Under the pieces are notes generated by a model that saw nothing but the letters and a program-made list of their open reading frames with translations, was not told the DNA's origin and searched no databases. The translations under genes and the position numbers were made by a program. A stretch of 64,000 nt of DNA, from positions 139,476 through 203,475 of the forward strand of contig JACPPV010000023.1 in NCBI GenBank assembly GCA_016190825.1, read 5' to 3'. This stretch comes from Chloroflexota bacterium (GTDB taxonomy: Bacteria; Chloroflexota; Dehalococcoidia; Dehalococcoidales; UBA2162). Every line of letters starts with the position of its first letter. Position 1 is the stretch's first letter. Of the stretch, positions 34,563 to 62,069 are shown piece by piece.

Positions 34563-34570
34563 TTCCCTTT

Positions 34571-36368: not shown

Positions 36369-36370
36369 TA

Positions 36371-36665: not shown

Positions 36666-37127
36666 TTAGTAACTCGTTGGCCTCAGGTAGACCTTGTACG
36701 TCCTCGTCTCAGTTACTCCCCACCGGTTCACGGGCGAAGAGGTAATGGTCATGGTGATCACGCGGCCATCCAGAGTAAAGACGGCATCGGCAACATTCCG
36801 CGCCAGTACTATCTCAGAACCCCCGGCAGACCGGCGAAGCTCATAGAGAGGCCCGGAGCCTTCCAGTTCGTACTCGATCGTGGAGTTGTCCGATAAAGTA
36901 AGCTCCAAGCCGCTGCTCACATTGGCTGAAGTGGCCATCTGCCCGTCAAGGGCGAACCAGGAAGCGGCGTTCTGGACGTCATGCAGCGCGGTCAGCGTGC
37001 GGCTGCCGCTCTCAGTAACGGCGAAGAACTGGTATATGGCTGTGCCCGGCAGCCCGATAATCAGTCCGGTGATGGCGATAGCCACAAGAAGCTCAACCAG
37101 CGCCATTCCCCGCTGACTTTTCATCAC
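36666..37127 (-). CDS. Minor pilin / pseudopilin
   Basis: MMKSQRG/MALVELLVAIAITGLI prepilin signal with Glu+5. Confidence 0.7.
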   Translation of the reverse strand: MMKSQRGMALVELLVAIAITGLIIGLPGTAIYQFFAVTESGSRTLTALHDVQNAASWFALDGQMATSANVSSGLELTLSDNSTIEYELEGSGPLYELRRSAGGSEIVLARNVADAVFTLDGRVITMTITSSPVNRWGVTETRTYKVYLRPTSY

Positions 37128-37474
37128 CGGTTTACCTTGTAGTCCTCTACCGCGAGCAGGGTTGCCCCGTCCCGCGATACGGTGACCGTGACTTTCGTAA
37201 TATTGTCGGCGATAGGACTGAAATCGATAAAAACATCGTAGCCTGGCTCACTGACGGCGGAATATGTTCCTGTTTCGTTATAAGAAACGGCCTTAATCGC
37301 CTCCAGGTTTGTGCGCGCCAGGCTCTGTGCTGTGGCATCCTGACCGGCGACGCGGACCGCCAGTGAGCCGGTTGAAAGGGCTGAAATTGCGGCAACTACG
37401 GCGGTCCCCAGTATGGCGACCGCAATCAAAGCCTCAACCAGGCCGGCCCCCCTTTCCTGCCAGACCAGGTTCAT
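37124..37474 (-). CDS. Minor pilin (PilV-like)
   Basis: MNLVWQERG/AGLVEALIAVAILGTAVV. 4-nt overlaps on both sides. Confidence 0.7.
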   Translation of the reverse strand: MNLVWQERGAGLVEALIAVAILGTAVVAAISALSTGSLAVRVAGQDATAQSLARTNLEAIKAVSYNETGTYSAVSEPGYDVFIDFSPIADNITKVTVTVSRDGATLLAVEDYKVNR

Positions 37475-38679: not shown

Positions 38680-38774
38680 AGTTTTTCCCCAATCTGATCG
38701 AAGCAGGGGTTTGCCGCAGGCTTATTTCCAGGGAGAACAAAGACGCCTTTAATCGCGGTCAAGCAAATCAAAAA

Positions 38775-45280: not shown

Positions 45281-46384
45281 TTACTTGGGCACACTCTCAG
45301 ACACATTGAAAGGGGCGCTGATGGTGGGGGCCAATCCGAGGCTGGTGGCGGTCAATGCGTAACGAAAACCAGCGAGATCGATGGACAAATGTGCCCACGT
45401 GGCCACGCCATTCACGGCATTGACCGTCTTTGTGCCGGACAGTATAGCCCCGCCTGTGCCGGTGCCGGGAGTGATAGCCAGCGTCACGGGTGCCGTGGAA
45501 GTGGTCACTGTATTCCCGTAGGAGTCCAGTACGTTCACTTTGATCTCCTTGGTGAGGGTTGATCCAGCCTCAAATCCAGCAGGGACTTTGGTGAAGGCAA
45601 GCTTCGTTGCCGCGCCGGGCGTCACATTGAAGGAATTGCTAATGGCTGAAGTCAACCCACGACCGATGGCTGCCAGGCTGTAGTGAGACCCAGCCAAACG
45701 GATCGAGAGGTCAGTGAACGTGGCTACCCCGTTTACCGCGTTAACCGTCGTTGTTCCGTATAGCGTTGCCCTGTCACCGCTGACAATTAGCGTCACCGGT
45801 GCCGTAGAAGTGGTCACAGTGTTGCCATTAGCATCTTCTATTCTCACTACCGGTTGGACGGGCAGGACTGACTCAGCCGTAGCCTCAACAAGCTCCGTCA
45901 CAAAAACGAGTTTCATTGTCTCGTTAGATGACCCTTGGGCCAGTAAGGAAGTTCCTGTTGGTACGGGTGAAAATCCGAACGGCGTGGGAGAATCAGTCTT
46001 TGTTCTTCTATTACCGGAAGCGACCAGAATGGCCGCTAGTGTTAGTACCACTGTGAGAGCGATTAATAAATATTTCTTCCTCGTTGATACCTGAAAAAAC
46101 TGATTTCCAGCAGTCTGCTGAGACCGCCCGGCGGGTCTTACCGTGGAAGGGGTTTCTGCCGGACGGTTCTCGTCAGAAACGGCCTCAAGGTCTTCTTCCA
46201 CGAAGCGGGCAGCCGGACGTAAGCCTCTCCACTCAAATCTCACCATGTACCAGAAGCCACTTGAGCGCTTCGAAGGAGGTGAATAACTCGAAGGGCTATC
46301 ATCCACCATCCCAATTTGACCTCTATACGGTGAATGGGAAACCAAACGGACTTTTACTCTATCGCCTTTATTGAACTTTGGCAT
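45281..46384 (-). CDS. Single-pass membrane protein: N-terminal KOW/SH3-like domain, TM helix, two Ig-like repeats
   Basis: MPKFNKGDRVKVRL..GQIGMV, TM helix YLLIALTVVLTLAAILV, then two ~90-aa repeats (..NGNTVTTSTAPVTL..GT.TVNAVNGVAT...LSI..AG.Y.L.A). The start overlaps the upstream stop by 17 nt. Confidence 0.6.
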   Translation of the reverse strand: MPKFNKGDRVKVRLVSHSPYRGQIGMVDDSPSSYSPPSKRSSGFWYMVRFEWRGLRPAARFVEEDLEAVSDENRPAETPSTVRPAGRSQQTAGNQFFQVSTRKKYLLIALTVVLTLAAILVASGNRRTKTDSPTPFGFSPVPTGTSLLAQGSSNETMKLVFVTELVEATAESVLPVQPVVRIEDANGNTVTTSTAPVTLIVSGDRATLYGTTTVNAVNGVATFTDLSIRLAGSHYSLAAIGRGLTSAISNSFNVTPGAATKLAFTKVPAGFEAGSTLTKEIKVNVLDSYGNTVTTSTAPVTLAITPGTGTGGAILSGTKTVNAVNGVATWAHLSIDLAGFRYALTATSLGLAPTISAPFNVSESVPK

Positions 46385-47894
46385 ATATTTCCGGCCCCCC
46401 GCCAACAAAAATCCTGTTATATAGGTCTACCCCGTAGCTGGTGTCCAGTGGCTCACCATTAGTCAGCCTGTAAGTTCGGGTTCCGTCCGTCTTTCTTTCA
46501 GCACGCAAGAAAAGAGCCTCATTCGTCCTTGCTTCGTAGAGCTCGTGCGCAAACTGATACAGATGAGATACGAAGATTACCTTGACCTGCCTCTCTATCA
46601 TAGCAGCTACTATCTGTCTCGCAATCTCTGATCCTTCTATCTCGTTCGTGGCGGCAAACGTTTCGTTAAGCAGAACCAGAGAATGGGCGGACAAATGGTC
46701 TGCAATTTGACTCATGCGGCTAAGTTCATCATCCAATTTGCCGCTTTCCATAGAGACGTCTTCCTTGCGCTTAAAGTGTGTGAAAAGCCCTGTGCACAAA
46801 TTGGCACAAAAAGAACGGGCTGGAACAAACATCCCGCAATGCATCATCATTTGTGATAGGCCTACGCTCCGCAAAAAGGTCGTCTTTCCACCCTTGTTAG
46901 CTCCGGTCACTATGATGAGACTCTTGCTATCGGCATTGATGTCGTTCGCTACCACCTGTTGTCCCATGCTCAGTGCCAGGGAAATGTCATAAAGCCCCTC
47001 GGATGAGAATATGCGCTCGCCCACCGCGGCAACCACAGGAAAGCACGTTGGCTCACCCAATTCGGCAAGGCGCTCATGCAGATTGACACAGCCCAGGTAG
47101 AATGCGAGTTCGGTCTGCAATGTAACAAGGAAGTTGAGAACGTGGTCTACCGATTGGGCAGTGGCATTGGCCACTGAGTTGATCCCCCTGTTCCTAAGCT
47201 CGCCCAGTTTCCTGATCGCAGTCTCATCTTGGTCATTGATACGGAAGGTGTATGCTCTTGGCCCCCTGCTGAATACCCGTTGGATCCATTTCTTCTGGTT
47301 GTTTGATTTGAGCAATACGTAGTTGCTGCCCCGGTTGCCTTTCCCTAACTGTGCGCCGATCAGAACTTCATCTCGCAAACTCAACTCCCAAAGATGCCCC
47401 TCAATTTCTTCCAGGTATTCGCTGCTAATCTCTCCCTTGATTCTTGCGAAGAACTCTTTAAAACCCTCCGATTCAAATTTACCGGCATCTTGATCAGCAA
47501 CGCTCTTCAGTGTTTTCAGCGTACCCAGGAATACTTGTAAACTTTCGACGGCACGGAAGAGAATCGACCATGGGGAGTTGGCAAGGCCTGCGGCCCAGTG
47601 GGACACTTTTCTGTCTCCAATAACGCTAACCGCGAGCTCGTACAGTCTCTTTACCACAAAGGGATTCTTCAGACAATCCCTGAGGACTGCCTGTCGGTAA
47701 AATATGACGTCGGGTCCGTTACCGAAGCCTGACAGTAGCGCGCTCTGTGCCACTCGGTGTAGGAACTCGTCGTCATTGGCCATGGCGCTGGAAATGGGAG
47801 CAAGTTGGAGGTCCTGGATCAACTCCGGGCCGTTCCAAGGCGCATTTTGCTCCAGATCGAAGTCTCGATCCTTGTACATCAGGTAGACTTTCAC
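46368..47894 (-). CDS. MutS-domain-V-only ATPase, paralog B
   Basis: 508 aa. Walker A GANKGGKTT, Walker B LVLLNETFAATN (Asn in place of Asp), FVSHLYQF. No MutS domain I or Smr recognisable. GTG start shares 1 nt with the upstream stop (taGTG). Confidence 0.8.
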   Translation of the reverse strand: MKVYLMYKDRDFDLEQNAPWNGPELIQDLQLAPISSAMANDDEFLHRVAQSALLSGFGNGPDVIFYRQAVLRDCLKNPFVVKRLYELAVSVIGDRKVSHWAAGLANSPWSILFRAVESLQVFLGTLKTLKSVADQDAGKFESEGFKEFFARIKGEISSEYLEEIEGHLWELSLRDEVLIGAQLGKGNRGSNYVLLKSNNQKKWIQRVFSRGPRAYTFRINDQDETAIRKLGELRNRGINSVANATAQSVDHVLNFLVTLQTELAFYLGCVNLHERLAELGEPTCFPVVAAVGERIFSSEGLYDISLALSMGQQVVANDINADSKSLIIVTGANKGGKTTFLRSVGLSQMMMHCGMFVPARSFCANLCTGLFTHFKRKEDVSMESGKLDDELSRMSQIADHLSAHSLVLLNETFAATNEIEGSEIARQIVAAMIERQVKVIFVSHLYQFAHELYEARTNEALFLRAERKTDGTRTYRLTNGEPLDTSYGVDLYNRIFVGGGPEIYAKVQ

Positions 47895-49423
47895 TATTTT
47901 ATTCGCTCCTTCAGAGACTTATACGTCAGGCCATACTTTTCGGCTATTGCCGCCGCATAGGAGAGCCCGTATGGGGGCCTCCTTACGATCTTGTACGTAC
48001 GCAGTGACGGATTTTGGGGGGCCACCATGCTAACCATGCTCACCGCCTTGTCGCTGTATGATGCTAGCTCCTCGACAAACGTTACCCACACACAAAGCAA
48101 GTCTAACTGGCTTAGACTTTCCATCACCTTTTTACTTAGGAAGACAGCATCTTTTAGCGTCGTGGAAGTCAAAATCTCGTTAGCGATGACGATGCTGCGC
48201 GACGTAGCCTCGTCGAGAATGCCATGGATCCTCGTGAGATCATCTTCCAGTTTACTTCTCAGGTCCTCAACGGTTTCTTCTTTTTCGAAATGGGTAAATA
48301 GCCTGTCGAACAAGAAGAGTTTTGCTTCCTTTCCCGGCACAGGGCAGCCTAGGTTGGCAAGATAGTGCGACTGTCCAAAGATGCGCGCAAAAGTCGTCTT
48401 TCCTCCCTGGTTCGGCCCAGAGACCACGAATATGCGCTCCTTGCCCTTCATGAAAAAGTCATTGCATACAGTAGGCCTGCCTTCGGGAATAAGCTTGTTG
48501 GCCAAAGCTAGATCAAACCCTTCCAGCTGGGAGATTTCTTTGTTTGTCTCTGAGACTTCAGGATAGCAGAGTTTGAGCCCTGCCGCCTTGATGGAATTAA
48601 TAAATTCCAGATAGGCGACATAAAACTGTATTTCGCGGTCAAAATCAGCGATTTTCTTATCAAGAAAGTCTACGTTCTTTTCACAAAAATCATACAGCTC
48701 TTCAAATACTTCAGGATATAATTGAGCCACCGCCTCAAGAATCACTGCCTCCATGTCGTTCATGTCTGCCGGCTCAGAAAACGTGATCCGGTAATCCCTA
48801 GCTCCTCCCTGTTTGAACCTCTCGAATGTCTTCTCCACTTCTGCGCTGTAGTCCCCCTTAGACTCGCGCTTTCGGACGGTGAAGTTCTTTCCTTTGATAT
48901 GTACGCAGTAGTCCACTCCAGCTAGATTGGCCCCCACTCGCTGTGTTTCTGCTGCAAAAGACGTGAAAGGCTCTGATTTTACGTAGTCTCGTAAGTATTC
49001 GCGGAACGCCAGGAACCCCCGCGATTTCAGATCTGCTGCCGAAAGGTCACGATAGAGAGAGCTGACTGCGTGGCAGTAGGCATCCACTGCGTCCAGGAAC
49101 CACCTTTGCTTCTGGAGCTGGTAGGAAAGCCTTTCACTCCGCGCGAGGCAATCACGCATAGTGTGCATCCGTTGCGCAAAGGCCGCTATGATCCTGGCAG
49201 GCTCTTGTCTTTCAAGTTCCTGCATTACTTCGTGACGGTATTCGATGGCGCCGATACGTTTCAGAGCAGACCAGAAGAAGGGCCTCAGATTGTATTCTTC
49301 CTTGCCCAAGGTAACCGCTTCCGCAATCTGGTCAAGATTCAGATCAGCAAAAAAGCCCGGCAGCTCCGGTTTTTTCATTGGCCTGTCTTCAGGCCTCTCG
49401 AACAAAATGCTTTCAAAGCTCAT
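47894..49423 (-). CDS. MutS-domain-V-only ATPase, paralog A
   Basis: 509 aa. Walker A GPNQGGKTT, Walker B IVIANEILTSTT, WVTFVEEL (no His). The ~330-aa N-terminal helical region has no mismatch-binding motif. Confidence 0.8.
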   Translation of the reverse strand: MSFESILFERPEDRPMKKPELPGFFADLNLDQIAEAVTLGKEEYNLRPFFWSALKRIGAIEYRHEVMQELERQEPARIIAAFAQRMHTMRDCLARSERLSYQLQKQRWFLDAVDAYCHAVSSLYRDLSAADLKSRGFLAFREYLRDYVKSEPFTSFAAETQRVGANLAGVDYCVHIKGKNFTVRKRESKGDYSAEVEKTFERFKQGGARDYRITFSEPADMNDMEAVILEAVAQLYPEVFEELYDFCEKNVDFLDKKIADFDREIQFYVAYLEFINSIKAAGLKLCYPEVSETNKEISQLEGFDLALANKLIPEGRPTVCNDFFMKGKERIFVVSGPNQGGKTTFARIFGQSHYLANLGCPVPGKEAKLFLFDRLFTHFEKEETVEDLRSKLEDDLTRIHGILDEATSRSIVIANEILTSTTLKDAVFLSKKVMESLSQLDLLCVWVTFVEELASYSDKAVSMVSMVAPQNPSLRTYKIVRRPPYGLSYAAAIAEKYGLTYKSLKERIK

Positions 49424-50385: not shown

Positions 50386-50871
50386 ATGATGCAGCTACGA
50401 AGGATGTCACCCATTATGGGAATGGTAACATTGTTCTTTGTCACTGGTCTGGTGGTTCCTGTCTTTATGGCCTGCGCTTCTCCGCAGGAGCCGGCATCCC
50501 CTCCGCCGCTCCCTCCTTTAGGTGGAGACAAGGGAAATCCGAAGCTGAGCTCTCAGCTTAACCAGCTTGTCCAGGCAGAGAGCCGAGGAGAGGCTGTGTC
50601 GTTTGCGCAGCAGCAGAACATCGTGCTTGTTGACAGGAAAGTAAGGGTAGTTATAGAAACCCTACCTGGTCAGCTCGAGATGGCAAGGCAAGCTGTTGCC
50701 AGTGTTGGGACAGTGGAGGCAAGCGATGAAGGTCTGCTTCAGGCGATTGTGCCGGTTAGCAGCCTCAATTCCCTGGCTGAAGAGCCCGGCATCAAGTTTA
50801 TCCGGCTTCCCATGCTGCCGGTGCCCGGTGCCAAGGATGATAATGCTCAGCAGTTGAAGACGGGGGAGTGA
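50386..50871 (+). CDS. Lipoprotein paralogous to the subtilase N-terminal propeptide (I9-like)
   Basis: 161 aa. Signal peptide with lipobox VFMAC. Residues ~50-145 align with the N-terminal region of the next protein (NPKL.S.LN...VRV.IET......RQA....GTVEASD..LLQ......L..LA..PG..F.R.P). ATGA overlap with it. Confidence 0.65.
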   Translation: MMQLRRMSPIMGMVTLFFVTGLVVPVFMACASPQEPASPPPLPPLGGDKGNPKLSSQLNQLVQAESRGEAVSFAQQQNIVLVDRKVRVVIETLPGQLEMARQAVASVGTVEASDEGLLQAIVPVSSLNSLAEEPGIKFIRLPMLPVPGAKDDNAQQLKTGE

Positions 50872-53800
50872 TGAAACTACTCAAATTAGTCCAGCTATTG
50901 GTCGTCGCTGCCCTGTTATTGAGCGCATCCCTTTCTTACTCGGAGCCATTACCTGTTTCCGCCGCCGATCCTGAACCGCAGCCAGTACAACTTCCAAAGA
51001 ACGCCAACCCGAAACTTGATTCGCGGCTGAATCGTGTGCTCAAGGAGCAAAACGACAAAACGACGTCCCGTCCAGCCCAGCAGAATCCCGATGAAGTTGG
51101 GACTGAAACTGTGCGCGTGATCATCGAGACCTCAGCCAACCAGATGGGGCAGGTCCGGCAGGCGGCATCAGGACTCGGCACTGTTGAAGCCAGCGACGGC
51201 AACCTGCTACAGGTGAACGTGTTGGCGGGACAACTGGCGGCGCTGGCAGACCTGCCGGGCGTGCGCTTTGTCAGGACGCCTTATAGTTTTGTGGAGGATG
51301 TGGTCAGCGAGGGCGTGGCCGTCATTGGCGCTGATGTATGGCAGAACGCCAGCTACAATGGCAGCGGTGTCAAGGTAGGCATTGTTGACGGCGGATTTGC
51401 CGGTTACACGACGCGGCAGGCTGAGGGCGAGCTGCCGGCCAGCATCACTACCTGGTGGGCACCAAGCATCGGGAATGAGGGAACAGAAAAGCACGGCACG
51501 GGAGTAGCTGAGATTGTTTATGATGTTGCTCCCGGCGCCCAGTTCTACCTGGCGAACGTGGATACAGAAGTCGACCTTGGCAATGCGGTCGACTGGATGA
51601 TTGCCCAGGGCGTCAATGTCATTTCGATGTCCCTGGGCTGGTATCCCGGGGGTCCGGGCGACGGCACAGGTCCGATAGCTGTGATAGTAAACAGGGCACG
51701 CGCCGCTGGCATCCTCTGGGTGAACAGCGCCGGAAACTCGGCACGAGAACATTGGCAGGGGAATTTTGTTGACACCGACGGCGACACGTGGCATGAATTC
51801 AGCCAGCCCTCCCCATTTGATGAAAACCAGTCCATCTTTGTTCAGACTGGAGCCTCCATAATCGTTTTCTTGAAATGGGACGACCCCTGGGGAAGCTCGT
51901 CCAATAACTACGACCTCTATTTGACTGATAATCAGAGTATCATCCGCGCTGCCTCTGAAGATGTTCAGAATGGTAACGATGACCCCGTGGAAGCTCTCCA
52001 GTTTACCGGTGCGTATACCGGCTTCTACAGAATATGGATCAAGAAGGTCGGCAGCCCGGCAGTAAGAAACTTCCACCTGTACAGCCTTGTCCAAACCCTG
52101 GAATACCAGGTGGCATCAGGCAGTCTGACTGTGCCCGCCGATTCGCCAAATGTGATGACGGCTGGTGCGGTTTACTGGAACAACGCGGGAACGATCGAAT
52201 CTTTCAGCTCGCAGGGACCCACCACTGATGGCAGGACCAAACCCGATATTGTCGCGCCGGATGGCGTCAGTACGCGCGCTTACAGCCCTGGAACGTTCTC
52301 CGGCACTTCCGCTTCTGCACCTCACGTGGCCGGCGCGGCGGCGCTGGTGAAGCAAGCGTATCCATCATATGACGTCGTCCAGATACAGGCCTTCCTCGAA
52401 GGCAGGGCAGTCGACCTCGGTGATGCCGGGAAGGATAATGTATTCGGCAGCGGCAGGCTGAGCCTCGGCTATATGACTCCGCTAGTGACCACCGATGACG
52501 CCACCACTGTCAGTCATAACTCAGCCAGCCTCAGCGGAAACCTGACTTCTCTGGGCACGGCAAGCTCAGCCAACGTCACTTTTCAGTGGGGGGGAGAGTC
52601 AGAAAACTATACTGCCAGCACTATCATTCAGACAATGAATACCACCGGCAGCTTTAGCTCCGATTTAACCAGCCTGTCGGCGAATACCACCTACTATTTC
52701 CGGGCGAAGGCGAGCGGGCAGGGCGATGCGTATGGAGTCGAGAAGAGCTTCACTACGTTAGCGATACCCGTTCCCACCGGGCTGGTCAAAATCTCCCTAG
52801 ACAATAACCCTTTTACCGCCTTCAAATGGAACGCGGTTGATAACGCTACTGCTTATCAAGTCATGGTGGACTCCGGCAACTGGACGGATATCGGCAACCG
52901 GCTGACCTACGTCCAGCCCACCATCTTGGGCAAAGGCAGCCACACCTTCCAGGTGCGGACGAAAGACCTGTGGGGCAGTGCCAGTTCGGCAGCCAGCTTG
53001 AGCTTCAATGTGACCGTGACGGCGGACCTGGCGAATACAAAGATCGCTTTCGTTTCAAACCGTGATGGGAACATGGAAATATACGTGATGAACACCAATG
53101 TGACTGGAGTGAACCGGCTCACGACGGACACCTCGCACGATTCTTATCCATCATGGTCGCCTGACGTGAGCAAGATTCTTTTTACACCCAGTCGTGACGG
53201 ACAACAAGAGATTTACATGATGAACAAAGATGGATCCAACCAGGTACGCCTGACCAATTCTCTTGGCTCTGACTTCGAATCGCGATGGTTTCCAGACGGC
53301 CAGAAGATTGTCTTTACATCTAGCCGAGATAACAGTTACGAGATTTATGTGATGAATGCTGATGGAAGCGGTCAAACGAATCTGACAAACTACCCAAATC
53401 CGAATCTCGCTTATAATCAGGGAATAGACTGGCAACCAGCGGTATCCCCGGATGGCACCAGAATTGCTTTTGTTTCAACCAGGGGAAGCGTCCCTGGAAC
53501 ATCCCAAAATCTAGATATTTACCTCATGAACGCAGACGGGTCTGATGTTGAAAGGTTAACTAGCCATGAGAGCAGTGACGAGAACCCATCATTTTCGCCC
53601 GACGGCAAGACGGTCGCCTTTAACTCGCATCGGAACACGTATTCAGAGATTTACCTGATGGATGTAGATGGCACTAATCAGCGAAGGCTAACCTACAGTG
53701 CGAGCAGCCAGACCGGCCACAATTTGAGACCGATCTGGTCTCCTGATGGCTCCAAAATACTGTTCGAAAGAGCAACTAATGGCGTCCCGCGAATCTATTC

Positions 53801-56798
53801 CATAAATCTGGATGGCACCGGTGAAACAAATCTTACCGACTCCATGCCCGGGGACAACTTCTTTCCGTCATGGTCCCCCTTCCTAACTCCACCAACCGTA
53901 ACTACCAATAATGCCGCGAATATCACCTACAGCTCGGCAGTCCTGAGCGGCAACCTGACATCGCTCGGCACGGCAAGCTCAGCCAACGTCACTTTTCAGT
54001 GGGGGGGAGAGTCAGAAAACTATACTGCCAGCACTATCATTCAGACAATGAATACCGCCGGCAGCTTTAGCTCCGATTTAACCAGCCTTTCGGCGAACAC
54101 CACGTATTTTTTCAGGGCGAAGGCTGCCGGTGACGGAGCAGCGTATGGAATCGAGAAGAGCTTCACCACTTTGCCCACTACCCCGGTGGTGAGCACGGAT
54201 AATGCCACGGAGGTTACTTTTAGTTTCGCAATATTGAACGGCACCTTGACCTCATTCGGTACGGCAAGCTCAGCCAATGTTTCCTTCCAGTGGGGGTTGA
54301 ATTCGGAAAACTATACCGGTGAGATTTCTTCGAACTACACATCGATGAACTCTACCGGCGTTTTCAGCGGTAATCTGACCGGTCTCAGTCCGGCCACTAC
54401 CTATTATTTCAGAGCCAGAGCGGTCGGTGATGGCGCCGGCTACGGCGAAGAAAGAAGCTTCACGACCGCGGTTATTCCCTCCCCATCGGTTATCACCGAT
54501 GAGGCCACCAACATTACCTTTACCTCTGCGCAACTTAATGGAAACCTGACCTCTCTGGGCACGGCATCTTCAGTTAATGTATCTTTCGAGTTAGGCGTCA
54601 CTTCTGGTAACTTCACCGGCTATACCGTTCCTCAGACAGTGAATGCCACTGGCAGTTACTCGTTTGCCCTGGGGAGCCTGTCTCCCAACCAGACTGTTTA
54701 TTTCCGGGCGAAGGCGGTCGGCAATGGCACCAGCTACGGTGAGGAAAAGAGCTTCACCACACCAGCGGGGACAGCGCCATCAGTGACAACTGATAATGCC
54801 ACCAATATTACCCATGATTCGGCTTGGCTAAATGGTAGCCTGGCATCATTGGGCACGGCTGACTCCGTCAATGTCTCTTTCCAGTGGGGAACAAGCCCAT
54901 TAACCTATACTGCCGAGACTACTGCCGAATCAATGAATGTAACTGGTGATTTCTATTTCATCCTAGACAGTCTATCCGCTAACACAACCTATTATTTTCG
55001 GGCGAGAGCCCTTGGACATGGCACATTTTCTGGAAGTGAGAAGAGCTTCACAACGCTGCCCACAACCCCGCCATCCGTTACTACTGAGAATGCCAGCGAT
55101 ATCAGGTTTTATGATGCTCGCTTAAACGGTAATCTATCTTCCCTGGGTACAGATGCCTCAGCCAATGTCTCCTTCCAATGGGGAATTAGCTCTGACAACT
55201 ACACGGTTGAGACTCCTGTACAGACAACAAACATTACCGGCCCCTTCAGTGCCAACCTTACCGGATCCCTCTCTGCTAACACCACCTACTATTTCCGTGC
55301 AAAAGCAGCCGGGCAGGGCACTGGCTATGGCGAAGAATTGAGTTTCACTACTTTGCCCACCACTCCGCCCGATGTCATTACGGGAAACGCCACCAATGTG
55401 AGCTACTTCTCAGCGACTCTGAGTGGCACTCTGACGGAACTCGGCACGGCGGCCTCAGTCAATGTCACCTTCCGGTGGGGGACGAGTTCAGGAAATCTAA
55501 CCTCCAACACTTCTGTCCAGACAATGAATGCTACCGGTCTGTTCTCCCTTGACCTGGGCGGCCTGTCAGCCAACACAACCTACTACTATCGCGCCCGGGC
55601 GGAGGGCCACGATTCTGACTCCGGCAGCGAAAGGAGCTTCACCACCCTGGCTACAACTTTACCAACCGTGACTACTCTAGGCGTTGCCAGTGTTACATCG
55701 AGCGGCGCCAGACTGAGCGGGAATCTCACTTCTCTGGGTACGGCTGACTCGGTCAATGTCTCTTTCCAGTGGGGAACAAGCCCGGAGAGCTATACTGCCG
55801 AGACGGCTATACAACCAATAAATGCAATCGGGACTTTCCAGGCTGACGTGGCGCTTTTGGCGAGTACTACCTACTATTTCCGCGCTAAAGTCGCCGGGCA
55901 TGGCGTCGCGTTTGGCGATGAGATGACCTTCACAACATCGGAACCACCGCCCCCATCCAGCGGCGGTGGAGGTGGCGGTGGGGGTGGGGCGCCATCTGGC
56001 ATCATAGCGCTTGGTGTAAACGGCTTCCTGGGAGTAGGTCCACTCATCAACGCTATCACTGGCGTTACTCTGAATGCTGTGAACCTCATCTCTACGGATG
56101 GCAAGGCTTCGGTTGCCATCATAGCCAATACCACCATGCTCATGCCGACCGGACTGGCGGTCACCGGCCTTTCTGCGATTGTGGCTGAGCCTCCGGCTGA
56201 GCCGTCGCCCGGGGGCGCCATCATTCTCAACTATGAGTTCGGGCCCGATGGGGCTAGGTTTGACCCGGCGCTTACGATTGTGATGAGCTATGCCGACGAC
56301 CAGCTACCATCTGGGTTTTCAGAAGCGAACCTGTACCTGGCTTTCTGGGATGGCTCGGAGTGGGTACAACTGGCAAGCATTGTCAATCCAGAGGACAATA
56401 CGGTCACCGGGAAAGTGGAGCATTTCACCAGTATTGCCTTGATTGCGGGAAAACCGGCTCAACCTGTTTCGGTAGTGCAACCACCACCTTTTACTCCAGA
56501 TCCGACGCCTGATCCGGCTCCGGCGTTTTTATCACCTCAACCGTTGACTCCGGAACCTCAGCAGCCGTCGGCTGTTGAGCCCGCTCCTGCCCCGGCGCCC
56601 GAAGTACCACCGGTGCCGGATAGGGAAGCGACTTCGGAACCGATTGTGGGTGAGCCATCGCCTTCCGAGGCGGCGCCCATTCCTACCGGCGTCTTCTCTT
56701 GGTGGTGGATTATCGGTGCGGTCATTGGCGTGGCGATAATCGGCGGCGTAGTATACAGAGTACTGCGGTCAAAGGTGAGGCTGACACCCGAAAAATAA
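50868..56798 (+). CDS. Giant membrane-anchored S8 subtilisin-like protease with FN3-like repeats and a TolB-like beta-propeller
   Basis: 1976 aa. Signal peptide, propeptide, catalytic triad D (VGIVDGG), H (HGTGVAE), S (GTSASAPHVAG). One ~97-aa repeat, one FN3 domain, six PD40 blades (..EIYVMN..). Seven more ~97-aa repeats, a Gly run, a C-terminal globular domain, a Pro-rich stalk and a TM anchor WWWIIGAVIGVAIIGGVVY. Confidence 0.9.
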   Translation: MMKLLKLVQLLVVAALLLSASLSYSEPLPVSAADPEPQPVQLPKNANPKLDSRLNRVLKEQNDKTTSRPAQQNPDEVGTETVRVIIETSANQMGQVRQAASGLGTVEASDGNLLQVNVLAGQLAALADLPGVRFVRTPYSFVEDVVSEGVAVIGADVWQNASYNGSGVKVGIVDGGFAGYTTRQAEGELPASITTWWAPSIGNEGTEKHGTGVAEIVYDVAPGAQFYLANVDTEVDLGNAVDWMIAQGVNVISMSLGWYPGGPGDGTGPIAVIVNRARAAGILWVNSAGNSAREHWQGNFVDTDGDTWHEFSQPSPFDENQSIFVQTGASIIVFLKWDDPWGSSSNNYDLYLTDNQSIIRAASEDVQNGNDDPVEALQFTGAYTGFYRIWIKKVGSPAVRNFHLYSLVQTLEYQVASGSLTVPADSPNVMTAGAVYWNNAGTIESFSSQGPTTDGRTKPDIVAPDGVSTRAYSPGTFSGTSASAPHVAGAAALVKQAYPSYDVVQIQAFLEGRAVDLGDAGKDNVFGSGRLSLGYMTPLVTTDDATTVSHNSASLSGNLTSLGTASSANVTFQWGGESENYTASTIIQTMNTTGSFSSDLTSLSANTTYYFRAKASGQGDAYGVEKSFTTLAIPVPTGLVKISLDNNPFTAFKWNAVDNATAYQVMVDSGNWTDIGNRLTYVQPTILGKGSHTFQVRTKDLWGSASSAASLSFNVTVTADLANTKIAFVSNRDGNMEIYVMNTNVTGVNRLTTDTSHDSYPSWSPDVSKILFTPSRDGQQEIYMMNKDGSNQVRLTNSLGSDFESRWFPDGQKIVFTSSRDNSYEIYVMNADGSGQTNLTNYPNPNLAYNQGIDWQPAVSPDGTRIAFVSTRGSVPGTSQNLDIYLMNADGSDVERLTSHESSDENPSFSPDGKTVAFNSHRNTYSEIYLMDVDGTNQRRLTYSASSQTGHNLRPIWSPDGSKILFERATNGVPRIYSINLDGTGETNLTDSMPGDNFFPSWSPFLTPPTVTTNNAANITYSSAVLSGNLTSLGTASSANVTFQWGGESENYTASTIIQTMNTAGSFSSDLTSLSANTTYFFRAKAAGDGAAYGIEKSFTTLPTTPVVSTDNATEVTFSFAILNGTLTSFGTASSANVSFQWGLNSENYTGEISSNYTSMNSTGVFSGNLTGLSPATTYYFRARAVGDGAGYGEERSFTTAVIPSPSVITDEATNITFTSAQLNGNLTSLGTASSVNVSFELGVTSGNFTGYTVPQTVNATGSYSFALGSLSPNQTVYFRAKAVGNGTSYGEEKSFTTPAGTAPSVTTDNATNITHDSAWLNGSLASLGTADSVNVSFQWGTSPLTYTAETTAESMNVTGDFYFILDSLSANTTYYFRARALGHGTFSGSEKSFTTLPTTPPSVTTENASDIRFYDARLNGNLSSLGTDASANVSFQWGISSDNYTVETPVQTTNITGPFSANLTGSLSANTTYYFRAKAAGQGTGYGEELSFTTLPTTPPDVITGNATNVSYFSATLSGTLTELGTAASVNVTFRWGTSSGNLTSNTSVQTMNATGLFSLDLGGLSANTTYYYRARAEGHDSDSGSERSFTTLATTLPTVTTLGVASVTSSGARLSGNLTSLGTADSVNVSFQWGTSPESYTAETAIQPINAIGTFQADVALLASTTYYFRAKVAGHGVAFGDEMTFTTSEPPPPSSGGGGGGGGGAPSGIIALGVNGFLGVGPLINAITGVTLNAVNLISTDGKASVAIIANTTMLMPTGLAVTGLSAIVAEPPAEPSPGGAIILNYEFGPDGARFDPALTIVMSYADDQLPSGFSEANLYLAFWDGSEWVQLASIVNPEDNTVTGKVEHFTSIALIAGKPAQPVSVVQPPPFTPDPTPDPAPAFLSPQPLTPEPQQPSAVEPAPAPAPEVPPVPDREATSEPIVGEPSPSEAAPIPTGVFSWWWIIGAVIGVAIIGGVVYRVLRSKVRLTPEK

Positions 56799-57363: not shown

Positions 57364-58107
57364 ATGGGATTTCTATTGGCTTTACAGTTTTTGACCAGGG
57401 TCCCCATCACAATCCCCCGTATTGTGGATGACAGGGTGATGGCGCGGTCCCTGTCCTATTTCTCCCTCGTTGGCTTACTGATTGGCGCAAGCGCTGCCGG
57501 ACTGCACTACCTGCTTAGTCTGGGCTTCTCACCGACGGTAGCCAATCTGGGCGCAATCATTTTTATGATCTTCGTGACAGGCAATCTTCACGGCGATGGC
57601 CTGATGGATACGGCTGACGGCATTTTCAGCGGGCGTCCGCGGGCCCAGATGCTGGAAATTATGAAGGATAGCCGGGTCGGTGCTAATGGGGTGACGGCTG
57701 GCGTCCTGGCCGTGTTGCTGAAAGTTGTCCTATTGGGCGAGATGGATAGGTCATCGCAGATGATGGCGCTGGCAGTGGCGCCGGCACTGGGCCGCTGGGC
57801 GCAGGTATATGGGGCTGCCCGCTACACCTATGCCAGAAGCAATGGTGGAACGGGCGCCTTTACAGCTCATGTGGGCTGGCGGGAGCTGATTATCAATTCA
57901 ATAGTGGCTGCCGTGTTGGGTCTGGCGCTTTTGAGGATGCATGGATTTATTCTCCTGGGGATTATCCTGGCCGGCACTGTCCTGTTTCACGAGTTCATCA
58001 AGAGTAAACTGGGCGGTATTACCGGTGACACACTCGGCGCTGCCAATGAATGGATAGAAATATTGGCTCTCTTAGGGATGGTTCTCTTGCTATCACCCAG
58101 GTTTTAG
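57364..58107 (+). CDS. cobS: Adenosylcobinamide-GDP ribazoletransferase (cobalamin synthase)
   Basis: 247 aa. MGFLLALQFLTRVPI N-terminus, HGDGLMDTADG motif, multi-TM. Confidence 0.9.
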   Translation: MGFLLALQFLTRVPITIPRIVDDRVMARSLSYFSLVGLLIGASAAGLHYLLSLGFSPTVANLGAIIFMIFVTGNLHGDGLMDTADGIFSGRPRAQMLEIMKDSRVGANGVTAGVLAVLLKVVLLGEMDRSSQMMALAVAPALGRWAQVYGAARYTYARSNGGTGAFTAHVGWRELIINSIVAAVLGLALLRMHGFILLGIILAGTVLFHEFIKSKLGGITGDTLGAANEWIEILALLGMVLLLSPRF

Positions 58108-58111
58108 AAAG

Positions 58112-59212
58112 GTGCGAAAGATGCGCTTATCTATGGAAAAGGTACTAGCCGGCATTCGACCAGTGGACCGTGCCTGGCGGCTAAAAGCCAGAGAACGGCT
58201 GAATGACCTGGCCATTCCGCGCAACAGTCTGGGGTATTTGCTGGACCTGGCGGAACAGTTGGCCGCTATTAAAGAAAGCTTGAACCCTTCAGTAGCCAGG
58301 AAAATGGTGGTGACCATGGCTGGAGATCACGGTGTTGTAGCTGAGGGGGTGAGTGCATTCCCCCAGGAAGTGACCCGACAGATGGTAAGTAACTTCGTTG
58401 CCGGGGGCGCCGCCATCAATGTTTTGGCAGAAATGGCCGGCGCTGGTGTTACCGTGGTGGATATGGGAGTTGCAGCCGACCTGAGCGCTCTGGCAGAAAA
58501 ACAAAAGATACTTTCTTATAAAATCGCCTATGGTACACAAAATATAGTCAAGGGTCCGGCAATGACCCGAAAGCAGGCGGTCCAGGCGTTGGAAGCCGGC
58601 ATAGAGATTGCCGATCTCTTTGTAACAAACGGCATCGAGATGCTGGGCACGGGAGATATGGGTATCGGCAATACGACGCCCAGCAGCGCGATTCTGGCAG
58701 TGTTTTCCGGCCGACCTCCCCGACAGGTTACTGGACGGGGAACAGGGATCAGTGATAGCGCTTTTGATAACAAGGTCACGGTCATTGAAAAGGCTATCGC
58801 TCTAAACAAACCGGACCCAAGAGACGCTTTGGACGTCCTGTCCAAAGTGGGCGGCTTCGAGATTTCCGGGATTGCCGGGTTGATTTTAGGCGCAGCTTAC
58901 CATCGCATTCCGGTGGTGATAGACGGGTTGATTTCGTCCGCAGGGGCTTTGGCAGCAAAAAACCTGGCGCCCAGTGCCGTCGATTACATGATTGCAGCTC
59001 ACCAGTCCGTAGAACCGGGACACCAGTACATGCTGGAAGCCCTGGGGCTTAAGCCGATACTGAATCTAGACCTGCGTTTAGGAGAAGGCACCGGCGCGGC
59101 TCTGGCCATGCACATAGTTGAAACGTCTTCCCGGGTTATCAGCAAAATGCTGACTTTTGCTGATGCCGGTGTCACCGGACCACAGAATCAGGAGCGTATG
59201 GCACATGCATGA
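58112..59212 (+). CDS. cobT: Nicotinate-nucleotide--dimethylbenzimidazole phosphoribosyltransferase
   Basis: GDMGIGNTT, catalytic LGEGTGAA. The true start may be ATG 58133 (MEKVLAGIRPVD). Confidence 0.9.
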   Translation: MRKMRLSMEKVLAGIRPVDRAWRLKARERLNDLAIPRNSLGYLLDLAEQLAAIKESLNPSVARKMVVTMAGDHGVVAEGVSAFPQEVTRQMVSNFVAGGAAINVLAEMAGAGVTVVDMGVAADLSALAEKQKILSYKIAYGTQNIVKGPAMTRKQAVQALEAGIEIADLFVTNGIEMLGTGDMGIGNTTPSSAILAVFSGRPPRQVTGRGTGISDSAFDNKVTVIEKAIALNKPDPRDALDVLSKVGGFEISGIAGLILGAAYHRIPVVIDGLISSAGALAAKNLAPSAVDYMIAAHQSVEPGHQYMLEALGLKPILNLDLRLGEGTGAALAMHIVETSSRVISKMLTFADAGVTGPQNQERMAHA

Positions 59213-60737
59213 TCCGCAGGATATGAATCCCCAATACCTGGAAGACCTGGCTACAGGCTATTGGTACTCCGAGGTGCTTTTTACCGCCGTGGAACAGGGA
59301 CTTTTTACACGGTTGGAGCCTGACGGATTGTCCGTAGTGGAACTCGCCAGGCAACTAAACTATGATTTGGAAGCTTTGGAACGGTATATCCGTGCTCTGT
59401 CTGCTTTAGGACTCGTCTTTGAGGCCGATGGGTATTGCGCCAATACGAAGCTCTCCCGAAAATACCTGGTCCAGGGTGGCGAGGCTTATCAGGGCGACTC
59501 CATCCTCTGGCGCAAATATCTGGCTGAGAATTGGAAAAGCCTGAACCGGTGCCTGGAAAAAGGCACGCGGGTGCTTCTTCCTCCCCAAAATGAGCCTGAA
59601 GAAGCCGTCGAACAACGCCTTCGTCGTTATTGCTGGGCGATGGACTGCATTGCCAGGAACAAGATCGAACAAATCCTGCCATTTTTTTCGAGGCTACAGC
59701 TACGGGGAGAGATTCTGGATGTGGGTTCGGGCCTGGGTGCCTTTTCCGTTGGGTTCTTAAGGCAGTTTCCGGATACAAAAGCAGTCCTCCTGGATATGCC
59801 TCAGGTTCTAAAGTACGCAGAAGAAACCCTCTCCGGCCAGGGTTATCAGGACCGCATTCGTTATCAATCCACCAACGTACTGGAGCCGTGGGGTCTGCGA
59901 GAAACAGGATACAGCGTGGCCATTCTCTCTAACATAGTGCATGCCTTCGGCGAAGCAGAGGTTAGGCACGTGCTTTCTGAAGCGGCGGCCTATCTCGCAG
60001 ATGATGGCTTTTTGATCATCCATGATTTTTTCATGGAGCATTACCCGGAAAAGGCGAGCTTATCGGATCTGAATATGCTGGTGAATACCTATAACGGCAA
60101 AGTTTACACATCCGCCCGGATACGGCAGCAGCTAGGAAGCGCCGGCTTCATGGTGACGGAGCTAATTGCTCTGGGGTCAGACACAGCCGTTCTGGTGGCA
60201 GCCAGACAGCCGCAAAGGCTGGCTGATTTGTGCCTTGATCCTTTGCAGCAGATGTCGGCGCAGATACAGACTCTGGGTTTTCAAGTGGTCAAGCCAATTG
60301 ACGTAAGTGCCATAGCCGTATCTGAGTGGGTTGGGCTCAAGTGTGAATTTGGCTGTGACTTTTTCAACGCTTCGCAATGTCCCCCCAACAGTATCGAACC
60401 GGAGAAAACACGGGCAATGCTGAAGGATTTTTCAAAATGCCTGCTGTTGCAAGGCCCCCCACCAACCCCGGATTTTCAGAGACTGGTGCTGCAAGCGGAG
60501 CATACAGCTTTCAAAAAAGGATATTATAAGGCCTTTTCACTCTGGGCCGGTCCCTGCAGCATTTGCCCGGAGTGCGGCGGCAAAGAGAATTGCCATAATC
60601 GGAGCAACGCACGGCCTTCTATGGAAGCCGCCGGCATCGATGTTTTTGAAACTGTTCGTAAAGCCGGGCTTCCTTTGCAGACATTACCAGGTAAGGATGA
60701 TTACGTGAAATATTTTGCCATACTGTTATTGGAGTAA
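59205..60737 (+). CDS. bzaC: SAM-dependent O-methyltransferase fused to a Cys-rich DUF2284-like domain (BzaC-like)
   Basis: Start MHDPQD overlaps the cobT stop by 8 nt. Winged-helix dimerisation domain, SAM motif ILDVGSGLGAF. The C-terminal ~170 aa carry CEFGC..CPP and CSICPECGGKENC. Confidence 0.65.
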   Translation: MHDPQDMNPQYLEDLATGYWYSEVLFTAVEQGLFTRLEPDGLSVVELARQLNYDLEALERYIRALSALGLVFEADGYCANTKLSRKYLVQGGEAYQGDSILWRKYLAENWKSLNRCLEKGTRVLLPPQNEPEEAVEQRLRRYCWAMDCIARNKIEQILPFFSRLQLRGEILDVGSGLGAFSVGFLRQFPDTKAVLLDMPQVLKYAEETLSGQGYQDRIRYQSTNVLEPWGLRETGYSVAILSNIVHAFGEAEVRHVLSEAAAYLADDGFLIIHDFFMEHYPEKASLSDLNMLVNTYNGKVYTSARIRQQLGSAGFMVTELIALGSDTAVLVAARQPQRLADLCLDPLQQMSAQIQTLGFQVVKPIDVSAIAVSEWVGLKCEFGCDFFNASQCPPNSIEPEKTRAMLKDFSKCLLLQGPPPTPDFQRLVLQAEHTAFKKGYYKAFSLWAGPCSICPECGGKENCHNRSNARPSMEAAGIDVFETVRKAGLPLQTLPGKDDYVKYFAILLLE

Positions 60738-60742
60738 CGCTG

Positions 60743-62068
60743 GTGAAAGTATTGCTGGTCCAGGCGCCATCCGTTGAAAGCGCCAGTTCTGAGCGTGTAT
60801 ATCCCATAGGCATTGTGCTCCTGGGGACCCATCTCAGTAGGGCAGGGTACCAGGTGGCACTGTTTGATATGAACATCGAAGCCGATGCCTATGGTGCTTT
60901 GAAGGCTAAGCTGCTGGCCGAGCAACCGGACGTCGTGGGACTATCCCTGAGAAACATCGACCCACTGGCTAACAAAACAGCCTCTCTGATACCGCCCTTT
61001 GTCGTCACCGTGCGCATGGTGCGCGCGGTCTTGCCCGGCACGCCAATCATCGCCGGCGGGGCCGGTTTTTCGCTGTTTCCCGAGCGCATTATGCGGGAAC
61101 TGCCGGAAATCCGCTATGGTCTGAAGGGGGAAGCGGAGGGCAGTTTCCCGAGGCTATTGGAGGATTTAGAGCGGCCCGGGAAAATTCCAGGCTTGTGTTA
61201 CCGGGAACATGATCGGATGGTAATCAATCCGGTAGTTCCAGACTCTAGCTTTGAAGATTATCTTGTGCCCGACAGAGACTTGCTGCCCCCGGTCCTGTAC
61301 CGGGGCATCAACAAGTATGCTCCGGCCTTTGGCGTAGAAACCAAGAGGGGCTGCCCCTTGCGCTGCGCTTACTGCGTTTATCCCCAGCTTCAGGGCAAAA
61401 TATCACGCTGCCGCAAGCCTGCTGAAGTGGTTGACGAGATGGAAATGCTCCAAGCCAGGTACGGCCTTCGGGATTTTCATTTCAATGATCCCGTGGTCAA
61501 TCTGCCTGGCGGTCATCTGGAAGAAATCTGCGAGGAAATCCTGAAGAGAGGATTACATCTCACCTGGACTGGTTTCTTCCGTGAGGATGTAATGGATCCG
61601 GAAAAAGTGAGGCTCTATGAGAAATCCGGGTGCAGTTGTTTTTCCTTTTCGCCCGACGGTCTTTGTCAGAGCTCCCTGGAGGTGCTTCAGAAGAACCTGA
61701 AAGTCTCCGATATTCTCAGAGTCGCTGAACTGACGGCGCAAACCGATGCGGTAGTCGTGTACCATTTCCTGACCAATGTGCCCGGAGAAAATGCTGAAAC
61801 AATTCGACAGGGTAAAGCTTTGATTGACCAACTGTACGATATTCACGCGCTAAAGAAGAACCTCGGCGCTATGGTATTGAATAACATCCGGATTATGCCG
61901 GGGACACCCATCGAAGCCATCGCCAGAATGCAGGGAGAGATTGACACGGATACCGACCTGCTGTACCCCGTTTACTATAATCCCCAAAAGCACAGGACTT
62001 TAAGGTACGAGTTGGACACCTATCAGATGACAAAGAACGTTTTTATGTGGCAAGGAGTGGAGGCTTGA
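60743..62068 (+). CDS. B12-binding radical SAM enzyme (BzaD/BzaE-like methyltransferase)
   Basis: 441 aa. N-terminal Rossmann-like B12-binding domain (MKVLLVQAPS..). Radical SAM motif CPLRCAYCVYP. Confidence 0.65.
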   Translation: MKVLLVQAPSVESASSERVYPIGIVLLGTHLSRAGYQVALFDMNIEADAYGALKAKLLAEQPDVVGLSLRNIDPLANKTASLIPPFVVTVRMVRAVLPGTPIIAGGAGFSLFPERIMRELPEIRYGLKGEAEGSFPRLLEDLERPGKIPGLCYREHDRMVINPVVPDSSFEDYLVPDRDLLPPVLYRGINKYAPAFGVETKRGCPLRCAYCVYPQLQGKISRCRKPAEVVDEMEMLQARYGLRDFHFNDPVVNLPGGHLEEICEEILKRGLHLTWTGFFREDVMDPEKVRLYEKSGCSCFSFSPDGLCQSSLEVLQKNLKVSDILRVAELTAQTDAVVVYHFLTNVPGENAETIRQGKALIDQLYDIHALKKNLGAMVLNNIRIMPGTPIEAIARMQGEIDTDTDLLYPVYYNPQKHRTLRYELDTYQMTKNVFMWQGVEA

Positions 62069-62069
62069 T

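Follow-up and report, generated by a model that had tools for sequence, protein, structure and literature searches.

A very large membrane-anchored subtilase with a MAIN-like domain and a predicted prodomain-like lipoprotein partner in a Dehalococcoidia bacterium

The stretch of Chloroflexota DNA considered here (64,000 nt of contig JACPPV010000023.1, hereafter the window, whose positions are used throughout) carries two overlapping genes on the plus strand: a very large S8 peptidase (subtilase) gene at 50871–56798 (stop codon 56796–56798), and immediately upstream a gene for a small predicted lipoprotein at 50386–50871. The uninterrupted reading frame of the subtilase spans 50868–56798, or 1976 codons counted from the GTG taken as start in a preliminary description of the locus. 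The ATG one codon further on, at 50871, is the likelier start because GGGGGAG stands before it and because it overlaps the stop codon of the upstream gene in TGATG; it gives a protein of 1975 amino acids (aa), numbered here from its Met. From the N- to the C-terminus the protein comprises a signal peptide, a prodomain, the S8 catalytic domain, a repeat of ~97 aa (R1), an immunoglobulin (Ig)/fibronectin type III (FN3)-like domain, a six-bladed PD40 beta-propeller, seven further repeats (R2–R8), a run of nine glycines (Gly9), a domain of ~155 aa, a Pro-rich stalk, a transmembrane (TM) helix and a basic tail. The gene is genuine; it codes for a very large cell-surface protease of a Dehalococcoidia bacterium, and the product is very probably an active S8 peptidase tethered to the cell surface, as judged from its sequence.

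The hydrophobic N-terminus (aa 1–24, MKLLKLVQLLVVAALLLSASLSYS, 50871–50942) reads as a signal peptide, in agreement with the preliminary description. It is followed by the prodomain (aa 25–140, 50943–51290), whose structured core at aa ~80–135 is predicted by AlphaFold2 (AF2) to follow the order beta-alpha-beta-beta-alpha-beta with a local pLDDT of ~66–80, and by the catalytic domain (aa 141–540, 51291–52490). The latter scores 105.6 bits against Pfam Peptidase_S8 (PF00082, cutoff 21.8), and subtilisins of the PDB match the head in sequence searches at E-values down to 6e-18. Alignment with subtilisin BPN' places the catalytic residues at D173 (codon 51387–51389), H208 (51492–51494) and S480 (52308–52310) and the oxyanion residue at N289 (51735–51737), and all four are invariant in a 15-sequence alignment of the family; the claim of an intact D/H/S triad was therefore borne out. 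Following the oxyanion Asn, the catalytic domain contains a ~120-aa insertion (aa 292–414, 51744–52112), seen as a gap in the BPN' alignment between residues 291 and 415. This insertion is kept across the family and is modelled as all-beta, with eight predicted strands (pLDDT ~80); the Pfam scan detected no PA-domain family and gave only a spurious weak Aegerolysin match for it. When the model of the N-terminal 545 aa is compared by Foldseek, the top matches are ProN-Tk-SP, Csp subtilases and pro-subtilisin E. The propeptide had been called I9-like, which finds support only in its predicted topology and in these pro-subtilase matches, Pfam I9 giving no match.

The ~155-aa domain near the C-terminus (aa 1707–1861, 55989–56453) had been noticed as a domain of ~150 aa without assignment; its identity was one of two items missed in the preliminary description, the other being the upstream prodomain-like lipoprotein gene. 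The AF2 model of this domain is an all-beta sandwich with a pLDDT of 93.8. Its best Foldseek matches in the PDB are the ZU5 domains of ankyrins (3kbu, 3ud2, 3f59, 4d8o) and the GAIN domain of BAI3 (4dlo), with a probability of 1.0 and TM-scores of 0.45–0.56, whereas a sequence search of the C-terminal region against the PDB returned only noise. A predicted autocleavage motif, H1851-F1852/T1853 (codons 56421–56429), lies in the turn preceding the last beta-strand: in the model, strands occupy positions 143–150 and 153–158, H150 closes the penultimate strand and the last strand begins two residues on. This is the geometry described for the cleavage sites of GAIN, ZU5 and MAIN domains. In an alignment of 31 family copies, the His and the Phe are at least 90% conserved, with Ser or Thr next, near the domain end. 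The family profile brings SHF/S.YAIL into register with the GPS site of ADGRF1 (THL/TSFSILM) at a sub-threshold E-value of 0.21, and its match to the ZU5 domain of ankyrin-1 is likewise sub-threshold (E=0.72). No Pfam model covers the domain in scans of the window copy and of the family; in the relative P0126, Pfam GPS scores 27.8 bits, above its cutoff of 22.5, on '...SVSHLTTFAML'.

Motifs of this kind are well described. PIDD and Nup98 cleave themselves at HFS, CARD8 and NLRP1 at SF/S; both motifs are found at the C-terminal end of a ZU5-like domain, where a Ser, Thr or Cys nucleophile carries out an N-O(S) acyl shift (PMC3210808). ZU5, GPS and Nup98 domains have been united, and autopeptidases of this type predicted in large bacterial surface proteins (Zhang, Aravind et al. 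2012, PMC3482391). More recently, microbial GAIN_B-like domains with the HFS motif have been named MAIN (Microbial Autoproteolysis INducing; Brogan & Rudner, bioRxiv May 2026, doi 10.64898/2026.05.12.724683). In vitro as well as in vivo, YfkN of B. subtilis and other MAIN domains are cut between F and S, as documented for YfkN by the S1346A mutant and Edman sequencing; the fragments remain non-covalently associated, and the ectodomain is releasable. MAIN proteins consist of a signal peptide, enzymes and adhesion domains, the MAIN domain and an anchor, and Peptidase_S8, one of the commonest partners, occurs in 480 of ~15,000 of them; fn3, Pur_ac_phosph_N, CARDB and PD40 are listed as well, and structure-based annotation names the MAIN domain ‘ZU5’ or ‘GPS’ (doi 10.64898/2026.05.12.724683). 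In fold, motif and position, the domain of the window thus fits the MAIN class, and a MAIN/GAIN_B/ZU5-like fold and family membership can be regarded as highly likely.

The MAIN-like family is large and visible only by exhaustive search: an exhaustive profile search at E<=1e-3 recovered 18,028 sequence clusters, compared with only five proteins in a word-indexed search with the same profile. Most of the 146 closest MAIN-like proteins retain HF[TS] (134), have a TM-like segment downstream (135) and share the basic end (117). The Gly9 run directly before the window domain (aa 1698–1706, 55962–55988), already recognised in the preliminary description as about nine glycines, is kept at this position throughout the family. 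It is encoded by mixed codons (GGC, GGT, GGA and GGG), which points to a selected hinge, and the alternative of a slippage-prone simple repeat was rejected. Most S8 family members have a run of 8–12 glycines before their MAIN-like domain, as do 49 of the 146 closest MAIN-like proteins.

Beyond the MAIN-like domain, the Pro-rich stalk (aa 1862–1936, 56454–56678, 34% Pro) leads to the C-terminal TM helix (hydrophobic core aa ~1941–1961) and the basic cytoplasmic tail YRVLRSKVRLTPEK (together 56679–56795), so that the protein ends in ...PIPTGVFSWWWIIGAVIGVAIIGGVVYRVLRSKVRLTPEK. The hydrophobicity and charge of the two ends indicate a type I topology, with an N-terminal signal peptide, a single C-terminal TM helix and a basic end. 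LPXTG is absent, and an NCBIfam scan of the subtilase matched no sorting-signal model (sortase or PGF-type). An LPXTG, PGF-CTERM or other sorting signal was therefore rejected, LPXTG being found in none of the 146 closest MAIN-like relatives. The stalk, the TM helix and the short tail all stood up as first described, and the intact S8 site, the signal peptide and the single TM helix with its basic tail, in the absence of a sorting signal, support the earlier proposal of a very large surface-tethered protease, with which non-catalytic modules that may bind substrate or act as spacers are compatible.

The upstream gene (50386–50871, plus strand) encodes a predicted lipoprotein of 161 aa with a signal peptide and a lipobox-like FMAC, but no catalytic domain. 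It shares 40% identity (E=6e-21) with aa 28–138 of the subtilase and is thus a paralogue of the prodomain. Its stop codon TGA (50869–50871) overlaps the subtilase ATG as TGATG, so that the two genes are translationally coupled. Four related Dehalococcoidia/Chloroflexi loci carry an intact partner gene immediately before the subtilase (L001:854-1255, L002:1237-1668, L003:704-1243 and L004:8959-9423), and a frameshifted copy is found in the same place in L009:~3750-4210; all intact copies keep the lipobox Cys. The partner proteins are mutually 66% and 45% identical, as opposed to 32–39% identity to their cognate prodomains, which argues for a conserved partner rather than a gene fragment. A pseudogene remnant of a truncated subtilase was rejected on the same grounds, given the intact, lipobox-bearing orthologues at the same place in four loci. 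The partner itself has no Pfam I9 match. A stand-alone prodomain-like protein is reported to inhibit a subtilase potently in Plasmodium (SUB1 prodomain-like; PMC6993865). By analogy, the lipoprotein could be a membrane-tethered inhibitor and/or folding chaperone of the protease, an assignment that is put forward tentatively.

Between head and tail lie the repeats, the Ig/FN3-like domain and the propeller. Eight repeats of ~97 aa were found at the DNA and the protein level, each matching the others at E<=1e-19, and in Pfam they score as Pur_ac_phosph_N/PhoD_N/fn3-like. R1 (aa 538–634, 52482–52772, Pur_ac_phosph_N 22.8 bits) precedes the Ig/FN3-like domain and the propeller, while R2–R8 (aa 1009–1695, 53895–55955) come after both, the distribution of one plus seven copies given in the preliminary description. 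Tandem Repeats Finder reports no repeat in the array because the copies are only 60–70% identical in DNA. R2–R8 are rich in N-x-S/T sequons: they contain 41, compared with 13.8 +/- 3.1 in composition-matched shuffles. The sequons occupy recurrent positions that are sequons in homologues as well, with a mean of 3.8 per repeat across 51 repeats of 19 proteins. This enrichment hints at N-glycosylation of the repeat stalk.

The domain between R1 and the propeller (aa 635–722, 52773–53036) is a distinct Ig/FN3-like beta-sandwich of 88 aa, as had been proposed, with weak matches to Big_13, Y_Y_Y and Inhibitor_I42; repeated copies of it are found in the relative P0022 and a single copy in P0056. The propeller (aa 723–1008, 53037–53894) matches Pfam PD40 in five stretches (E=1e-45) and shows the blade motif [EDR]IY.[MI][ND] at aa 736, 780, 824, 882, 926 and 974. 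It had been called a six-bladed TolB-type propeller. The six PD40 blades are present, but the label TolB fits no more than the type of propeller: TIGR02800, the equivalog model of TolB, reaches 239 bits against a cutoff of 343, and its match is confined to the propeller positions. A TolB orthologue was rejected, as the score lies under the cutoff, the TolB N-terminal domain is missing and the neighbours are MutS2-like and CobS/CobT genes instead of a Tol-Pal context.

The 120 best database matches are S8 peptidases with the same head, and many of the named ones stem from metagenome-assembled genomes (MAGs) of Chloroflexota/Dehalococcoidales, with a few from other phyla. Genome loci were confirmed for seven Dehalococcoidia/Chloroflexi MAGs and for one Pseudomonadota MAG with a weak match (25% identity), and most of them belong to Dehalococcoidaceae, Dehalococcoidales or Dehalococcoidia. 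The N-terminal ~540 residues are 50–64% identical across the family. The tail (Gly run, ~155-aa domain, stalk and TM helix) was recovered in 37 or 38 of these 120 matches by different searches, always at the same position. The middle region of relatives variously contains CARDB, Big_2, Flg_new_2, cohesin or dockerin, FG-GAP, beta-helix, thrombospondin repeats, metallophosphatase, SNase or PD40; among the 120, R repeats are present in 24, PD40 in 12 and both in four. The family, as read from these sequences, thus keeps the S8 head and the Gly-run/MAIN/stalk/TM tail constant, with a middle that is swapped cassette-wise.

Three relatives illustrate this variation. P0006 has one R repeat, a different beta-propeller and four further R repeats between S8 and anchor; P0001 (L002:1704-7307) has four R repeats, an SNase domain and further R repeats before the anchor, so that a nuclease sits inside the repeat array; and P0004 (L011:6001-13548) has three PD40 propellers parted by single R repeats, together with a further repeat region. 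The P0004 gene is identical in two independent assemblies, and IS21 remnants are found just upstream of it. Since the R arrays of relatives are broken by other cassettes, the inserted propeller of the window gene represents family grammar and not a peculiarity. Its exact domain order was nevertheless absent from all collections searched, consistent with the preliminary description, in which the order was not recognised: exact-sequence look-ups of the protein from both start codons, and of the neighbouring CobT, returned no record, a genome-contig scan with the whole protein found no relative, and a metagenome-contig scan with the end of R1, the Ig/FN3-like domain (FN3b), PD40 and the start of R2 gave 80 loci, all of them generic PD40 proteins without S8, R, FN3b or MAIN-like domains. 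The general layout of signal peptide, enzyme or adhesion domains, MAIN domain and anchor, on the other hand, has been described, including for the 480 Peptidase_S8 proteins.

Taken together, the locus is probably best explained as encoding a Sec-exported S8 endopeptidase that is displayed outside the cytoplasmic membrane on a putatively self-cleaving MAIN-like anchor and accompanied by a prodomain-paralogue partner. The prodomain would help folding and then be cleaved off, as in other subtilases. The MAIN-like domain would cut its own chain at the F1852/T1853 bond through an N-O acyl shift in which T1853 serves as the nucleophile and H1851 as the base. The resulting enzyme-bearing fragment of ~1700 aa would be held non-covalently on a 123-aa stub composed of the last beta-strand, the stalk, the TM helix and the tail, from which it could be shed. 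The balance inclines slightly towards such autocleavage and shedding, by analogy with the domains discussed above. The repeats may serve as a spacer and the propeller and the Ig-like module in binding or gating, while the co-transcribed lipoprotein would act in trans on the protease as a tethered inhibitor and/or folding chaperone. The enzyme is proposed to degrade extracellular or detrital protein; chances for and against a nutritional role in extracellular protein scavenging appear evenly balanced. Cultured Dehalococcoidia are not known to have a peptidoglycan wall. The host is likewise assumed to have no cell wall, and hence no sortase-type or SLH-type anchoring, and the absence of a wall would account for a membrane anchor in place of wall anchoring.

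Several observations weigh against this interpretation. The prodomain gives no match to Pfam I9 even at E<=10, and the AF2 model of the N-terminal region is only moderately confident (pLDDT 65). For the MAIN-like domain, the Foldseek E-values are marginal (1e-3 to 1e-2), neither Pfam GPS nor Pfam ZU5 matches the window copy, and many ZU5 domains, such as those of ankyrin, are non-cleaving. The partner gene is absent from the related loci L005, L007 and L011 and is thus not obligatory. The functions of the FN3-like, PD40 and Ig-like modules, the substrate and the physiological role are read from domain type only, and the neighbouring genes (MutS2-like pair, CobS/CobT, methyltransferase-DUF2284 and B12-radical SAM) give no hint of proteolysis or peptide uptake. 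Finally, the collections searched hold no independent assembly of the exact gene or its junctions.

Some of these points bear on the alternative that survives best, namely that the protease is permanently tethered, with the GAIN_B/ZU5-like domain as a non-cleaving spacer and the enzyme acting at the surface only, never shed. Apart from the missing GPS and ZU5 matches, it draws support from the top structural matches, which are the non-cleaving ankyrin ZU5 domains, and from a few family members with GFS or HLS in place of HF[ST] or without the His. However, H-F-[ST] is kept in >90% of the members at the very turn where GAIN, ZU5 and MAIN domains cleave, and nearly all MAIN domains tested were cleaved (doi 10.64898/2026.05.12.724683). 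Nor does the missing His of some members settle the matter, as Nup98 His mutants still cleave (PMC3210808). Permanent tethering is judged unlikely, while keeping a real share of the probability.

A second alternative, still less probable, is a non-nutritional one: the protease would be a surface-maturation enzyme, a sheddase or an antagonistic enzyme directed at the host's own envelope or S-layer proteins or at neighbouring cells, with the middle cassettes setting the target. Constant ends around a highly variable middle are the pattern of polymorphic surface systems, some MAIN/ZU5 proteins bear toxins, and the cognate inhibitor-like lipoprotein resembles an immunity arrangement. Yet neither a toxin domain nor a gene family of the immunity type was detected, and the head is that of a generic subtilisin-type endopeptidase. 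The partner, being a paralogue of the prodomain, belongs to the usual regulators of subtilase folding and activity, and the SNase, phosphatase-type and carbohydrate-related modules of the relatives suit the scavenging of biopolymers.

The middle region also raises the question of assembly. A tract of 122 nt in R1 (52554–52675) differs by one mismatch from 53967–54088 in R2, with exact runs of 90 and 31 nt, while its flanks have diverged and the two repeats share 79% protein identity. It looks like gene conversion or a recent cassette insertion or duplication by recombination within the repeats, although a trap for the assembler is possible as well. That the FN3b-PD40 segment was wrongly joined in, or the copy number of an R-FN3b-PD40 unit collapsed, through this tract, so that the true middle differs, is very improbable: besides the shared exact runs and the missing second assembly, only the tetranucleotide correlation of the insert with the rest of the window (0.45, versus 0.64–0.79 for controls) speaks for it, whereas the reading frame is open over both junctions, the GC content at third codon positions (GC3) of the insert is 0.58 and equals that of the flanks, the diverged repeat flanks (~85% identity over 275 nt) are bridgeable by ordinary reads, independent assemblies also contain R arrays with a globular cassette inside them (P0006, P0001, P0004 and P0005, with P0004 recovered twice), and the correlation is low in R2–R8 too (0.53), which probably reflects amino-acid bias and not foreign origin. 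A foreign insert was likewise rejected on composition, given the equal GC3.

A more far-reaching version of the preferred explanation, that of a self-cleaving display anchor with a regulatory partner, may be sketched as a speculation of low probability. The protease would be a ‘leashed and muzzled’ exo-protease: the lipoprotein would inhibit the mature enzyme near the membrane, and force- or ligand-driven separation at F1852/T1853 would free the 1700-aa ectodomain from anchor and inhibitor alike, so that full activity would be reached only away from the wall-less producer. The TM-anchored MAIN subfamily (~18,000 clusters, without a Pfam model) might then be a general display-and-release device of wall-less Chloroflexota and relatives, and members wired to cytoplasmic helix-turn-helix (HTH) domains could signal. 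Some MAIN-like proteins do bear such domains. The cluster representatives P0182, P0187, P0259 and P0268 begin with one or two HTH domains of the Cro/C1 type, followed by a TM helix, a MAIN-like domain on the extracytoplasmic side, CARDB and another TM helix, and P0126 has two MAIN-like copies followed by a TM helix and a cytoplasmic HTH_Tnp_1 region. By their domain content, these proteins resemble transcription factors that are tethered to the membrane and equipped with a self-cleaving sensor domain; no signalling role has yet been tied to the C-terminal fragment of MAIN (doi 10.64898/2026.05.12.724683).

The features of interest in this family are TM-anchored MAIN modules in Dehalococcoidia, a conserved lipoprotein partner and a middle that varies by cassettes. 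Sediments and aquifers harbour abundant Dehalococcoidia, most of them uncultured, and little is known of how they acquire polymers. Giant cassette-variable surface proteases, some with nuclease or phosphatase-type modules, would be direct candidates for the degradation of necromass. With this gene, the MAIN release module would reach a phylum for which it has so far not been discussed, plain anchoring in the membrane, and proteases, and the prodomain-like lipoprotein could explain how an active protease is tolerated on the membrane of the wall-less cell that makes it.

The surroundings of the operon are of a different nature. Upstream, two adjoining paralogues of ~508 aa on the minus strand (46368–47894 and 47894–49423) match only the MutS domain V ATPase; this MutS2-like pair is divergent from the subtilase operon, with a gap of ~960 nt between them. 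Directly downstream, on the plus strand, lie CobS, CobT (DBI_PRT), an O-methyltransferase-DUF2284 fusion and two B12-binding radical SAM genes (57364–63587). Together they form a cluster for cobamide lower-ligand synthesis or remodelling, plausible in a corrinoid-dependent member of the Dehalococcoidia. Farther off, the window contains selenocysteine machinery, with a tRNA-SeC (anticodon tca) at 17599–17695 on the plus strand and SelB and SelA at 19759–21735 and 22150–23544 on the minus strand. It also contains a type IV pilus or T2SS-like cluster on the minus strand (31651–40532), comprising a PilB-type ATPase with MshEN, PilC/T2SSF, a PilM-like protein and a PilS-like histidine kinase, and an amino-acid permease gene.

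All of the domain types found in the protein, multi-domain surface subtilases as such and the MAIN display-release layout including S8 are already known, the layout only recently and from a preprint. The propeller has counterparts in TolB, tricorn, DPP-IV and the prolyl oligopeptidases, all of which have PD40-type propellers, and the window propeller itself gives partial TolB, Dpp5 and DPPIV_N matches. In the tricorn, DPP-IV and prolyl oligopeptidase types the propeller gates or guides the substrate. In the window protein, by contrast, it lies inside the repeat array, ~180 residues from the catalytic domain, and is not fused beside it. The partner resembles the stand-alone inhibitors of MEROPS I9 type, such as the Plasmodium SUB1 prodomain-like protein (PMC6993865), in being a separate prodomain-homologous product that inhibits, or in the present case may inhibit, the cognate mature enzyme. 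It differs from them in being a predicted bacterial lipoprotein whose gene directly precedes that of its likely target and is coupled to it in translation, and it has no match to Pfam I9.

Tk-SP of Thermococcus kodakarensis and the clostridial Csp germination subtilases share with the window protein, as modelled, a prodomain of the beta-alpha-beta-beta-alpha-beta type, the subtilisin fold and an added beta-sandwich or jelly-roll. Csp proteins are intracellular spore proteins. Identity to either group is only 14–18%, with a window model of moderate confidence, and neither group has surface-display modules. The Gram-positive cell-envelope proteinases (lactocepin PrtP, streptococcal C5a peptidase ScpA and SpyCEP) are likewise very large, surface-anchored S8 enzymes that have a prodomain, FN3-type domains and a catalytic domain with an insertion. 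Among the PDB sequence matches of the window protein are the C5a peptidase, SpyCEP and a cell envelope proteinase, though only over ~55 residues around the catalytic Ser (E~1e-9). Unlike the PrtP/ScpA type, the window protein has neither a PA domain nor LPXTG, and its insertion is a different all-beta domain; the Gram-positive cell-envelope proteinases are not known to have a propeller or a MAIN-like module.

The autopeptidase domains of the ZU5 superfamily predicted in bacteria also lie in large surface proteins in which adhesion modules are combined with hydrolases of extracellular biopolymers. The emphasis there is on N-terminal ZU5 domains of RHS/TcdB-type toxins and on a ‘CxH’ thiol site (PMC3482391), whereas the window domain is C-terminal and membrane-proximal, with H-F-T and no Cys. 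The closest counterparts are the MAIN surface proteins, with YfkN as the prototype and a set that includes Peptidase_S8 ... ZU5/GPS(MAIN) - SLH. Compared with the preprint set, the window protein has a Thr in place of the Ser nucleophile and a Gly run before the domain, and its anchor is a plain TM helix, with the Pro-rich stalk before it and the basic tail behind, not LPXTG, SLH or a wall-binding domain. Its Dehalococcoidia host is not discussed in the main text of the preprint, and its cleavage is predicted only. It nonetheless has the same domain order, the large size and the H-F-S/T in the last beta-turn in common with these proteins, and FN3, CARDB, Pur_ac_phosph_N, PD40 and Peptidase_S8, listed in the preprint as partner domains of MAIN, are all shared with the family described here.

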